A stretch of DNA of 10,295 nucleotides, taken from a virus (taxonomy: Duplodnaviria > Heunggongvirae > Uroviricota > Caudoviricetes). A program made the translations under genes and the position numbers. Shown here in pieces: positions 1,204 to 7,986 of the stretch (the stretch's first letter is position 1; the number at the start of each line of letters is the position of its first letter). Where the stretch lies: the IMG/VR virus record IMGVR_UViG_3300047476_001337, positions 1 through 10,295 of that record; one strand, given 5' to 3'. A model generated the notes under the pieces. That model saw only the letters and a list, made by a program, of their open reading frames with translations. It was not told where the DNA came from and did no database searches.

Positions 1204-2139
1204 ATGAAAGATTTACAATCCGTAATAAACAAACTCATTAATAAGTCAGTGGTTGGGTGTGACACCTACACCAATAAAAATAGTCTATGGTTAATATTTA
1301 CCGACAAAAAAGAGTGGGTGATTGAATTAACTAGCTCAGGCTCTTTGTGGTATAATTACTATTTCTTTCAAAAAATATTTAAGGTTCTTAGTCTTGATGT
1401 TATTGAGAATCAACATTATATAACAAAATGGGTTGGTGATACCATTCAAAATGGGGTGAAAAACACCGAGGACATTACCTTTGAGGAAGTTGAAAATGTT
1501 GGTGATACCATTCAAAATGGGGTGAAAAACACCTGCCATCCGCATCACTGGCCAAACTCGGGTGTTGGTGATACCATTCAAAATGGGGTGAAATACACTA
1601 CGGCAGACAACTTCCAACGTTCGTATTGGGTTGATGATACCATTCAAAATGGGGTGAGAGACACCGCTCATCACATTGGTCGCAAATATGCCCCTGTTGA
1701 AAACACCATTCAAAATGGGGTGAGAATCACCAACCGAAAGCGGTGCGCTTTATATCAGACCGTTGAAAACACCATTCAAAATGGGGTGAGAATCACCTCC
1801 GCCGCCATGTTCTTTGGTACAGAACAAGTTGAAGATACCATTCAAAATGGGGTGAAAAGTACCCACACAAGGCAATTACATCAACCGCTGATAGTTGAGG
1901 ATACCATTCAAAATGGGGTTAAATTTGTTTCAAGTTTAAGTTATTACCCATCATCTATGATTGAACATACCATTCAAAATGGGGTCAAAAACACCTTATA
2001 TAAACAAGGGAATTACCGCGGAGTAGTTGAAGAAACTATACAAAATGGGGTAAAATATATTGGGTATATATTTCGTAAAAATATACGAAAAGTTGAAGAA
2101 ACTATACAAAATGGAATTAAAAATAATCAAATAATATAA
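1204..2139 (+). CDS. Array protein 1 (311 aa): ~76-aa N-terminal domain + 11 VEDTIQNGVKxT repeats with unique 10-aa inserts
   Basis: Start moved from 1195 to 1204 (MKDLQ): it aligns with the paralog start MKDLSK, and 1195 lies inside the -7 promoter box. N-domain has 52/76 aa identity to array protein 2 by manual alignment. Confidence 0.85.
   Translation: MKDLQSVINKLINKSVVGCDTYTNKNSLWLIFTDKKEWVIELTSSGSLWYNYYFFQKIFKVLSLDVIENQHYITKWVGDTIQNGVKNTEDITFEEVENVGDTIQNGVKNTCHPHHWPNSGVGDTIQNGVKYTTADNFQRSYWVDDTIQNGVRDTAHHIGRKYAPVENTIQNGVRITNRKRCALYQTVENTIQNGVRITSAAMFFGTEQVEDTIQNGVKSTHTRQLHQPLIVEDTIQNGVKFVSSLSYYPSSMIEHTIQNGVKNTLYKQGNYRGVVEETIQNGVKYIGYIFRKNIRKVEETIQNGIKNNQII
1432..2127 (+). repeat. CRISPR-like array 1, in frame inside a CDS: 11 x 36-nt repeats, 10 unique 30-nt spacers
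   Basis: Repeats start at 1432, 1498, 1564, 1630, 1696, 1762, 1828, 1894, 1960, 2026, 2092, an invariant 66-nt period. Spacers are unrelated to each other. Internal CCATT-caa-AATGG palindrome. Confidence 0.95.
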
Positions 2140-2145
2140 AACAAA

Positions 2146-4581
2146 ATGAAAGATTTAAGTAAACTAATTAACAAGATGATTGACAAGGCTATTATAGGTT
2201 GTGATAAATATGTTCACAATAATAGTACTTGGTTAATTTTTACTGACGATAAAAAATGGGTTATTGAATTAACTAAGGATGGTACTTTGTGGTATAATTA
2301 CAATTTTTTCAAAAATTTATTAAAAGTTCTTTCTTTGGATGTTGTTGAAAATCAACACTATATTACCAAATGGGTTGAAGATACCATTATAAATGGAGTG
2401 AAAGAAACTATTACCTCTGAAAATCGTAGTAGATTAACCGCAGAAAATATTATTGAAAATGGGGTGAAAAACACCGAAACCACTAAAGCCACTTACAATA
2501 CATTGGTTGAACATACCATTAAAAATGGGGTGAAACACACCGAGGATTCGAAAAGTCTGAACTCTCAGGAAAGGGTTGAACATACCATTGAAAATGGGGT
2601 GAAAGAAACTCTTCATTATGACCACCATTGTCTAAGGGAAGTTGTTGGTACAATTCAAAATGGGGTGAAACACACCCGAAGAAACGGGGATTCTATGAAT
2701 ACCGATGCTGAAGACGCCATTATAAATGGGGTAAAGGAATCAAAACCATCTAATGCTGCTTCTTGGACTGAAGTTGAAGATACCATTCAAAATGGGGTGA
2801 GAGACACTGGAACGTACTACGTGGAACAGGTCGTTGAGATTGAAGATACCATTCAAAATGGGGTGAAACACACCTCTGGGGGTAGAAATTATGGTCCGTA
2901 TAGAGTTGAAGACACCATTCAAAATGGGGTGAAAGAAACCGAATGGATAAACAATAGTTTGCTCCCTGCGGTTGAAGATACCATTGAAAATGGGGTTAAA
3001 GAAACTGAATTACACAAAGGGGTTAGACCATCTGCGGTTGAAGATACAATTCAAAATGGGGTTAAACACACTAATAACAGGCTTAATCGTGATATAAGAG
3101 TCGTTGAAGATACTCTTGAAAATGGGGTGAAATGTACTCAATCAAAATCAGGTTACTGGGGGAGAAATAATGAAGACACCATTAAAAATGGGGTAAGACA
3201 TACAATGTGGAGTAATGATGATGACGATGTTGAAGACGCCATTGGAAATGGGGTGAAAGAAATTCATTGGGTTAAATATAGTAATTTAAGGTCTGTTGAA
3301 GACACCATTCAAAATGGGGTGAAGTACACCTGTCAAACAATGAATCCAAAATGGAAGTATGTTGAAGATACCATTCAAACTGGAGTGAAGTACACAAGTT
3401 GGCACGAACCGATACTTTTAGGTACAAAGGTTGAAGACGCCATTCAAAATGGGGTGAAAGAAACTCACCGAGATGCTGAGCGACACCCAAAGACTGTTGA
3501 AGACGCCATTGAAAATGGGGTAAAAGAAACCAAGAAAGGTGGTTTTAATCAACATTATAATATGTTTAGGACCATTGAAAATGGGGTAAAAGAAACCAAA
3601 AAATTAGAACACGATAGAACCACTTATCATGCTCATTTTAGTCAAGAACATGGAACGCACACACCGTTAGACATGGTTCAAGATGTGGTTCAAAATGGAA
3701 TCAAGGAAACCAAAACACCCGGTGCAGATGGTGATATTTTATCAACGTTAGAATGGATAAAAGAAAATAACACCGTGAATATCCCTAAACTAATTGATGA
3801 TGTTATTGAGAATGGAGTTAAACATACTGAGGCAGGTTGGGCTCAATACAATTCAGTTGATGATGTGATTGAACGTGGAATAAAACGCACAGAAGGTGGT
3901 ATTTTATTTGATGAAACTAAAGTTGATAGGATTATTTCTGAAGGTGTTAAAGAAACTAAAGCTGGTGGATATTTGAGTTCAATAGAAATGAAAGGTAAAA
4001 TGGTTCATCAACTTGAATCTCCAAAACAAAATAATGAGGTTGATGACGTAATTGAACACGGTGTAAAACTAACCAACAGCTCATTACAAATTGATGGTTC
4101 TTGTGTTGTAGAAGATGTTATTCAAAATGGAATTAAAGAAACATCTTCAACAACTTTAGAACCAACCAAAGCAATTGAATATATTATTCAAAATGGAATT
4201 AAAGAAACCCATGATGATGTTTATCACAATAAAGGTAGAGTTGATGGCGTAATTAAAAATGGCGTCAAAGAAGTAAAACCATCATACCGAATAATTATTA
4301 ACCCAATGAATTTTGAATCTGAAATAATTGAAGATACAAGACTCCTCGATATTACAGATGTAATTTGTGATGGAGTAAAAGAAATTCAACCATTACCTGC
4401 ACAAGATGGTAATAGAGATTGGGGTAATTACTATTATAGAAAAGGAGAACCTACAAAACCACATACCAAATATGTGGATGAGGTTATTGAGAATGGTATT
4501 AAAGAAACAAAACCAATTGATTATTCAGACAATACTGAATTTATTGTGGATGGTGTTATAAGTAGAGGAATTAGTATTTAA
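2146..4581 (+). CDS. Array protein 2 (811 aa): same N-terminal domain + 30 repeat units
   Basis: ORF track; 6 nt after the stop of gene 1; paralogous N-terminus; synonymous variation within repeats. Confidence 0.9.
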   Translation: MKDLSKLINKMIDKAIIGCDKYVHNNSTWLIFTDDKKWVIELTKDGTLWYNYNFFKNLLKVLSLDVVENQHYITKWVEDTIINGVKETITSENRSRLTAENIIENGVKNTETTKATYNTLVEHTIKNGVKHTEDSKSLNSQERVEHTIENGVKETLHYDHHCLREVVGTIQNGVKHTRRNGDSMNTDAEDAIINGVKESKPSNAASWTEVEDTIQNGVRDTGTYYVEQVVEIEDTIQNGVKHTSGGRNYGPYRVEDTIQNGVKETEWINNSLLPAVEDTIENGVKETELHKGVRPSAVEDTIQNGVKHTNNRLNRDIRVVEDTLENGVKCTQSKSGYWGRNNEDTIKNGVRHTMWSNDDDDVEDAIGNGVKEIHWVKYSNLRSVEDTIQNGVKYTCQTMNPKWKYVEDTIQTGVKYTSWHEPILLGTKVEDAIQNGVKETHRDAERHPKTVEDAIENGVKETKKGGFNQHYNMFRTIENGVKETKKLEHDRTTYHAHFSQEHGTHTPLDMVQDVVQNGIKETKTPGADGDILSTLEWIKENNTVNIPKLIDDVIENGVKHTEAGWAQYNSVDDVIERGIKRTEGGILFDETKVDRIISEGVKETKAGGYLSSIEMKGKMVHQLESPKQNNEVDDVIEHGVKLTNSSLQIDGSCVVEDVIQNGIKETSSTTLEPTKAIEYIIQNGIKETHDDVYHNKGRVDGVIKNGVKEVKPSYRIIINPMNFESEIIEDTRLLDITDVICDGVKEIQPLPAQDGNRDWGNYYYRKGEPTKPHTKYVDEVIENGIKETKPIDYSDNTEFIVDGVISRGISI
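2374..3597 (+). repeat. CRISPR-like array 2, regular part: 19 x 36-nt repeats; spacers 15 x 30 nt, 2 x 33 nt, 1 x 24 nt
   Basis: Repeats at 2374, 2440, 2506, 2575, 2641, 2707, 2773, 2839, 2905, 2971, 3037, 3103, 3169, 3229, 3295, 3361, 3430, 3496, 3562; all spacings are multiples of 3. Confidence 0.95.
3676..4581 (+). repeat. Degenerate distal part of array 2: 11 repeats recognisable mainly at protein level ([VI][DE]xV I[EQ]NG[IV]KET)
   Basis: Units at 3676, 3793, 3856, 3922, 4039, 4108, 4174, 4240, 4351, 4474, 4546; spacers of 9-29 codons. Confidence 0.85.
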
Positions 4582-7500: not shown

Positions 7501-7986
7501 TTACATAAATAGTGTTCCACCAACATTAACCATCTGTCTTATTTCTTCAACTGAGTATTTTTTGGATATTGGAGTTAAAAATATATCCAAATTACCACCA
7601 ACTGATTTAAGATTTCCAAAAGATTCAATTGGACTATCTTCTAAAAATAAATTACCACCAACATGAGTTAAGTTTCCAAGAGATTTAATTGGTGTGTTCA
7701 TTAAATTCAAATGTCTACCAACATGAGTTAAGTTTCCAAGAGATTCAATTGATGTGTTACGTAAACGCAAAATACCACCAACGGAAGTTAAATTTCCAAG
7801 TGATTTAATCGAGGTGTTTTGTAATAACAAATCACCACCAATACTATATGGTGGATTTCCTTTTAATTCCAAATATCTTTGTAGTCCATCCCATCCACCA
7901 AATACTTTTGCACTAGGAAGATGAAGAACCTTTTGTTCCTCTTCAAATAATCTTTTGTGTTGGGATTCGGTTATGATGTATTTCAT
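7501..7986 (-). CDS. Leucine-rich-repeat protein, 161 aa, 5 x 20-aa repeats
   Basis: 60-nt DNA periodicity (ccaacatgagttaagtttccaagagatt repeated); SLGNLT[SH]VGGxLxLxNTxI units. Confidence 0.87.
   Translation of the reverse strand: MKYIITESQHKRLFEEEQKVLHLPSAKVFGGWDGLQRYLELKGNPPYSIGGDLLLQNTSIKSLGNLTSVGGILRLRNTSIESLGNLTHVGRHLNLMNTPIKSLGNLTHVGGNLFLEDSPIESFGNLKSVGGNLDIFLTPISKKYSVEEIRQMVNVGGTLFM

Follow-up and report, generated by a model that had tools for sequence, protein, structure and literature searches.

Can a gene take up pieces of foreign DNA in the manner of a CRISPR array and still be read, kept and shaped as a gene? This question is raised by the first 10.3 kb (the window, 10,295 nucleotides in full) of a 74.3-kb IMG/VR virus record (IMGVR_UViG_3300047476_001337), which belongs to an uncultured lake phage (33% GC; completeness estimate 25%) and in which two arrays display a repeat and spacer geometry (~36-nt repeats and unique ~30-nt spacers) inside open reading frames. 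To our knowledge, CRISPR adaptation serves only as immune-memory storage in non-coding arrays, and no paper on a translated repeat-spacer array, or on the protein motif described below, was found in the literature. The original prediction for this locus, made from the sequence alone, held that the spacers are of external or non-templated origin, enter near the 5' end, are selected as protein, and drift toward genome composition as they age.

Results

Two phage genes carry translated repeat-spacer arrays

The features on which the analysis rests are the following:

1204..2139 (+): gene 1, 311 aa; N-terminal domain plus translated repeat-spacer array 1 (from the ORF and its translation)
1204..1431 (+): N-terminal domain of gene 1, ~76 aa, alpha/beta (AlphaFold pLDDT 90.6)
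1432-2139 (+): array 1, wholly within the ORF 1204-2139
1432..2127 (+): repeats of array 1, eleven of 36 nt, with a 66-nt period
2146..4581 (+): gene 2, 811 aa, a paralogue of gene 1; N-terminal domain, then array 2
2146-2373 (+): N-terminal domain of gene 2
2374-3561 (+): regular part of array 2, with 18 regular 66-nt units
after 3561, within 2146..4581 (+): older irregular units of gene 2, with inserts of 9-29 aa

Both genes consist of a conserved N-terminal domain (N-domain) followed by a translated repeat-spacer array. Each repeat of array 1 encodes 12 amino acids (V-E-D-T-I-Q-N-G-V-K-x-T), with the codons ACC, GGG and GTG being atypical for the phage genome, and each of the 10 spacers between them, hereafter called cassettes (30 nt; 1468-2091), encodes 10 variable residues. 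All core-like repeats of the 74-kb record are located in genes 1 and 2, on the + strand. In array 2, the deviant cassette lengths (33, 24 and 33 nt) are each a multiple of 3, as originally stated. In the 3' third of gene 2, the motif D-x-V-I-x-N-G-I-K-E-T is retained with AT-rich codons, and there are long conserved inserts of 25-29 aa which recur in many phages; this region looks like the ancient part of array 2.

Elsewhere in the window, a YceI-like protein (PF04264, E 1.4e-45) is encoded by the phage at 6060-6569 (-), and its gene may be a host-derived auxiliary gene. A second tandem repeat, of 60 nt (20 residues; 4.2 copies, 76% matches), is present at 7588-7841, inside the ORF 7501-7986 (-).

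The cassettes are read and constrained as protein

Re-parsing of array 1 yielded cassette GC counts (of 30) of 11, 18, 15, 15, 15, 15, 13, 9, 11 and 7, identical to those first reported. The + frame is free of internal stops, as had been claimed, and the other five frames of the cassettes contain 6-53 stops each; given the base composition of the cassettes themselves (6.8% stops per codon), the probability that 321 codons contain no stop is 1.4e-10, where a rough initial estimate had given 1e-6 to 1e-7. The missing stops have a trivial explanation, as the array is a gene; the anomalous composition of the cassettes and its gradient along the array are not trivial. The unusual codons pointed out earlier in cassettes 2-7 are real, since the GC content at third codon positions (GC3) of these cassettes is 30/60 (0.50) vs 0.27 for phage genes and 0.29 for the cassettes of the family (binomial p = 5e-4), and cassettes 8-10 display a GC3 of 6/30 (0.20).

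Over 296 cassette pairs common to different genes, pN/pS was 0.29, therefore the cassettes are read and constrained as protein; together with the open frame, this supports the earlier claim that they are selected as such. In older repeats the amino-acid motif is kept, with synonymous variation present. A family-wide constraint on the repeats at the nucleotide level was considered and rejected, as synonymous sites are as variable in repeats as in cassettes.

Six cassettes of array 1 match chromosomal genes of one bacterial family

A 24-mer from the centre of cassette 2 matched two bacterial metagenome contigs (L120/L121; ~50% GC), on which the full match comprises 29/30 nucleotides with unrelated flanks, inside a 1207-aa GH92 mannosidase gene (source region ~50% GC) that has bacterial metabolic genes on its flanks. 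Homologues of this GH92 protein led to an NCBI metagenome-assembled genome (MAG), G404, and from it to its genus (20 genomes of 1.5-2.4 Mb) and family (125 genomes), which is formed by uncultured freshwater Bacteroidota with small genomes. Within this single family, 6 of the 10 array 1 cassettes (1, 2, 3, 4, 6 and 7) match chromosomal genes, with per-genome E-values down to 4e-8. The cassettes and their matches are:

1468..1497 (+): cassette 1, EDITFEEVEN, the newest; 28/30 to contig C161 of genome G412, sense strand, at the end of a small host ORF and in its frame
1534..1563 (+): cassette 2, CHPHHWPNSG, 60% GC; 29/30 to L120/L121 and to G412:C173, antisense to the GH92 alpha-mannosidase gene
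1600..1629 (+): cassette 3, TADNFQRSYW; 28/30 to G548:C51, within a TonB-dependent receptor gene (sense strand, same frame)
1666..1695 (+): cassette 4, AHHIGRKYAP; 27/30 to G543 and G545, antisense to clpX; common to phage L007
1732..1761 (+): cassette 5, NRKRCALYQT, 50% GC; source not found
1798..1827 (+): cassette 6, SAAMFFGTEQ; 25/30 (first 20 exact), antisense to rpoC in several genomes of the G404 genus
1864..1893 (+): cassette 7, HTRQLHQPLI; 26/30 (last 22 exact) to G420 and G413; identical DNA in phages L007 and L008
1930..2091 (+): cassettes 8-10 with their repeats, the old end of the array; AT-rich, GC3 0.20; source not found

In all matches with readable ends, the identity does not extend beyond the cassette, and the flanks are unrelated. 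Both newest cassettes (1 and 2) match genome G412, and the captured strands display no bias (3 sense, 3 antisense). The source genomes are MAGs or species representatives, and the matches of the window amount to 25-29/30, not to exact identity. In L008, a phage syntenic with the one studied here, the first cassette of gene 1 matches two genomes of the same bacterial family, including G539, over 30/30 nucleotides, and the first cassette of gene 2 matches G539 over 28/30. No cassette matched at E<=1e-3 in a control set of 21 larger genomes belonging to another family. The matched bacterium is presumably the host of the phage. The GC-rich look of cassettes 2-7 is largely explained by their bacterial origin, as the matched regions are GC-richer (35-52%) than the phage (33%). 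Thus, the external origin put forward in the original prediction is borne out by six cassettes of array 1 which match bacterial genes at 25-29/30, with sharp borders where readable, and for these six the non-templated alternative is rejected.

A search of the phage's own genome, of Bacteroidetes genomes and of co-occurring viruses had been suggested at the outset; matches came from the Bacteroidota family (6/10 array 1 cassettes), and none from the phage's own genome, GenBank phages or IMG/VR. In the own 74-kb genome the best cassette matches were 13 nt long, no better than those of shuffled sequences, and no protospacer was found in GenBank phages (megablast and blastn), in IMG/VR (26-mers of cassettes 2 and 3), in rRNA genes, or in an even sample of 401 Bacteroidota genomes, the latter being a weak test in which 2 candidates were scored per genome. 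No match was obtained for cassettes 5 and 8-10 in the 125-genome family, nor for the cassettes of L007 in five genomes. Array 2 cassettes, most of which are old units common to several phages, gave nothing convincing against the source genus and the five best genomes; the host-capture result concerns array 1.

Arrays grow at the N-domain end and age toward the 3' end

The sister phages L007 and L008 are syntenic with the phage of the window, with flank nucleotide identities of 88% and 81%, respectively. Both are devoid of cassettes 1-3 and have distal array 1 cassettes in common with it (from cassettes 8-10, two are common to L007 and L008, and the third to L007 only), and L008 has its own first cassette in gene 1. 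In array 1, repeats 1 and 2 are identical and repeat 3 nearly so, with degeneration increasing toward the 3' end; further, repeats 1-3 carry a V-G-D variant that is private to the first repeat, and similar runs are found in gene 2 of L008 and in protein P0005. For family-wide statistics, 59 distinct genes were parsed out of 90 loci. Repeat 1 is closer to repeat 0 than later repeats are (6.1 vs 9.1 nt; p 4e-9). Core GC decreases along the arrays, as does the use of the rare glycine codon GGG (rho -0.43), and cassette GC3 declines along the 59 homologous arrays (rho -0.19, p 6e-5). Furthermore, the quality of the host matches falls from 5' to 3' in array 1. Repeat copying, the comparison with sister phages and these declines therefore indicate that the arrays grow at the N-domain end and age toward the 3' end.

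These observations agree with the remaining parts of the original prediction. Entry near the 5' end is supported by the decay of host identity, by the comparison with L007 and L008 and by the copied variant of the first repeat; age grading, by match quality dropping away from the 5' end; and drift toward genome composition, by the fall of GC3 from 0.50 to 0.20 in array 1 and by the family-wide rho of -0.19. The positional gradient, whose absence from homologous arrays would have spoken against this view, is present in the 59 arrays.

A large protein family in which whole cassettes are exchanged

At E<=1e-3, the gene 1 protein has 2283 homologues; nearly all come from metagenomes, more than 2,000 of them from lakes, and the gene family was found only in viral or metagenomic DNA. 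Many 10-residue cassettes, above all in gene 2, are found again without any change in other phages and at other array positions; variation among cassettes consists of gain, loss and exchange of whole cassettes and not of substitutions at fixed positions. Old cassettes are shuffled through recombination between repeats. In gene 2 of L007 (8613-10343), units 4 and 9 contain the same cassette, FEGIGTEGIH, encoded by identical DNA, which indicates an internal duplication by recombination between repeats.

The N-domain of gene 1, which occupies the place where a CRISPR leader would be, is folded with confidence by AlphaFold and has 17 invariant residues across 35 homologues; the best PDB match to its fold reaches only Z 5.3. 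For the array, AlphaFold predicts one beta-hairpin per unit, with an N-G turn, stacked like a solenoid at low confidence (pLDDT 50-60); the best structural match of this low-confidence model (pLDDT 50-60) is a SufBD-like beta-helix (Z 14.1, rmsd 3.1, 174 residues aligned). As judged from this model, the scaffold of the array is probably a stack of beta-hairpins or a solenoid.

Searches of the gene 1 protein against Pfam and PHROGs retrieved nothing above threshold, the ESM Atlas yielded no recognisable relatives, and no RNA family was detected at the locus in Rfam. A Dodecin match (22.2 bits, cut-off 22.5) was rejected and read as a coincidence of a helix-like motif, and homology to the Crov588 FNIP leucine-rich repeat (PDB sequence match, E 3.5e-6) was likewise rejected, the match reflecting a common 22-residue period. 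The neighbouring genes are not conserved among distant members of the family and contain no integrase-like domains.

The repeats resemble those of type VI-B CRISPR arrays

The geometry of the phage arrays (36+30 nt) is that of type VI-B. Compared with published VI-B repeats (PMC5395568, Table 4), the reverse-complemented consensus repeat matches that of Flavobacterium columnare at 24/36 positions, that of F. branchiophilum at 23/36 and that of PspCas13b at 19/36, true VI-B repeats matching one another at 22-29/36; none of 20,000 shuffles reached a 23/36 match to VI-B repeats. True VI-B repeats fold at -10.9 and -12.2 kcal/mol into a hairpin closed by paired GUUG/CAAC ends, whereas the phage repeat RNA (reverse complement) folds at -6.8 kcal/mol (z -1.0) with unpaired ends; the phage repeat has lost the end-paired VI-B hairpin. 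The likeness holds only as reverse complement; in that orientation the canonical leader would lie at the gene's 3' end, whereas growth takes place at the 5' end.

Regarding adaptation machinery, none of five jumbo phages related to this one, of which four are 98-100% complete, has Cas1 (PF01867), and neither has any of the 20 genomes of the genus with the best matches for cassettes 1, 2, 6 and 7. Cas1 is present in 19/125 genomes of the source family, MAGs being a type of assembly in which CRISPR loci are often missing. The type II-C loci of this family (L173-L179) contain Cas1-linked arrays with 47-nt repeats and 29-30-nt spacers. The spacer length of these II-C arrays equals the cassette length of the phage, and one genome of the family, G543, has both Cas1 and the cassette 4 match. 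No bacterial array with the phage repeat was found, either by exact 19-mer in 185,579 genomes or by degenerate patterns in 401 Bacteroidota and 125 family genomes; single core-like matches in bacterial genomes are isolated and do not form arrays.

As for flanking motifs, among seven protospacers a pyrimidine occupies position -1 (6/6) and AA positions +2/+3 (4/7), numbers too small to call a PAM, so that a clear PAM did not emerge. Upstream of the array, codons -12 to -7 before the first repeat (~1395-1412) are unusually uniform at synonymous sites across 35 homologues (GAT 34/34, GTT 25/27, AAT 31/34 and CAA 35/35, as counts that ignore kinship), and they may represent a leader-like signal within the coding sequence. 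Taken together, the locus is like a CRISPR array at the acquisition step and fails several of its defining features, i.e., its sequence is coding, its repeat fails to fold, and cas genes were not found.

Discussion

In array 1, every new unit of 66 nt combines a duplicate of the first repeat with a piece of bacterial chromosome exactly 30 nt long and is inserted next to the N-domain, and the source gene is captured on either strand and in any frame. About 63% of host 30-mers lack an in-frame stop, which makes the open-frame filter mild; for this reason most insertions would not disrupt the gene and would extend it by 10 new residues of essentially random sequence. Tolerated units would then evolve as protein, with third codon positions drifting to phage composition and repeats diverging, and recombination between repeats would delete, duplicate and swap units among phages. 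The weakest step of this scheme is the inserting agent, which may be a CRISPR-adaptation-type integrase with a 30-nt ruler; the likeliest enzyme would be a Cas1-Cas2 of the II-C/VI-B kind which is supplied by the host and works on the phage DNA in trans during degradation of the host chromosome, and the repeats may descend from, or mimic, a VI-B-type repeat. Type VI-B arrays are devoid of cas1 and cas2, are filled in trans by II-C Cas1-Cas2, and contain many self spacers (Hoikkala et al., 2021, PMC8092290). Because of the geometry, the likeness of the repeats, this trans filling and the II-C loci of the source family, ruler-based integration of the Cas1-Cas2 type is the best available candidate mechanism. 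We consider the explanation as a whole, i.e., a translated array which captures host DNA through a CRISPR-adaptation-type integrase, with host Cas1-Cas2 as the most likely one, to be reasonably probable.

On what such arrays are for, we lean slightly toward the view that these phages own a mechanism, borrowed from CRISPR adaptation or convergent with it, which writes random 10-residue peptides into a protein by means of in-frame 30-nt pieces of host DNA, thereby building a heritable peptide-display library on a constant scaffold, whose useful cassettes are kept and traded.

Host 30-nt pieces could also be captured into the translated array by a phage-encoded, Cas1-independent mechanism, that is, a dedicated protein diversifier that merely resembles CRISPR adaptation. 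Albeit unlikely, this is in our view a serious rival, since neither Cas1 nor a matching array was found, the hairpin is lost, no clear PAM or nucleotide-level leader emerged, and the growing end is reversed relative to canonical VI-B arrays. The absence of Cas1 from the four complete related phages and from the 20 genomes of the source genus points in its direction, as do the lack of the phage repeat in the bacterial arrays searched, the lost VI-B hairpin, and the existence of a large gene family seen only in viral or metagenomic DNA. However, no candidate enzyme was found for it, the neighbouring genes being unconserved and without integrase-like domains, and Cas1-Cas2 would be expected to produce just what is seen, namely a 36+30 geometry, a duplicated first repeat and likeness to VI-B repeats; moreover, an empty Cas1 search carries less weight in MAGs, from which CRISPR loci are often missing.

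We consider it improbable that the locus is a working CRISPR array, whose processed RNA would guide an effector of the host (Cas13b or Cas9) to host genes or act as a decoy, with translation being incidental. Such a role would fit the VI-B-like repeat and the matches to host genes such as rpoC and clpX, and huge phages do carry arrays without cas1/cas2 whose spacers are directed against host chromosomes (PMC7162821). Nevertheless, the cassettes lie under purifying selection at the amino-acid level in a frame that stays open across more than 1,100 codons, a VI-B-like fold is not formed by the reverse-complemented repeat, the captured strands are unbiased (3 sense, 3 antisense), the old cassettes match no target, and Rfam contains no RNA family for the locus. 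An ordinary tandem-repeat protein, with loops diversified by point mutation and repeat recombination and with bacterial matches due to chance or contamination, would account for the gene 2 cassettes that recur in shuffled order across many phages, for the cassette present twice in L007 and for the lack of host matches in array 2, but is very improbable given that six cassettes of one array match one family (E down to 4e-8) with sharp borders where readable, that the matches lie within housekeeping genes of 35-52% GC, some of them antisense, and that the control family was empty and a sister phage gave a 30/30 match.

Under the favoured explanation, capture of host DNA by a CRISPR-adaptation-type integrase, the phage arrays display similarities to, and differences from, several known systems. 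Like the type VI-B (Cas13b) arrays of Flavobacterium, they have 36-nt repeats and 30-nt spacers without cas1/cas2 in cis, contain chromosomal spacers, grow at one end with duplication of the repeat, and have a repeat matching at 24/36 as reverse complement. Unlike them, the phage array lies in a gene, in frame, and is selected as protein, its repeat has no hairpin, its growing end is the opposite one, and neither Cas1 nor a matching bacterial array was found. The genomes of huge phages contain arrays without Cas1, Cas2 or Cas4 which sometimes target host genes, and the use of host Cas proteins has been proposed for them (Al-Shayeb et al., 2020, PMC7162821). The present case resembles these arrays in that the phage is large, adaptation genes are missing and the spacers match the host chromosome (PMC7162821). 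It differs from them in that those are non-coding guide-RNA loci whose repeats match host arrays, whereas the array described here is an ORF under purifying selection with a repeat that occurs in no host array found.

Protein diversification in phages offers further points of comparison. Diversity-generating retroelements, such as that acting on Mtd of Bordetella phage BPP-1, use a reverse transcriptase and a template repeat, and change adenine positions. Both are phage mechanisms that rewrite a defined part of a protein for variation; in the present arrays, by contrast, whole 30-nt host segments are inserted, each with a new repeat. In the gp38 adhesins of T2/T6-type phages and in beta-solenoids with coils of ~22 residues, variable segments arise by mutation and recombination. 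Constant motifs framing hypervariable segments, a 22-residue period and a predicted beta-hairpin or solenoid architecture are shared with these proteins; in contrast, no sequence relationship or confident structural relationship to them was found, and the array described here captures host DNA.

A reaction resembling CRISPR adaptation thus appears to lengthen a protein-coding gene, supplying raw sequence for segments that selection keeps, trims and shuffles. This raises the concrete question of which enzyme acts on the phage DNA; if no Cas1 is involved, the integrase itself would be new. Such a reaction would be a previously unknown way for proteins to diversify and for genes to grow out of foreign DNA, and the arrays would provide a new record of phage-host relationships, in which the newest cassettes name the host lineage.
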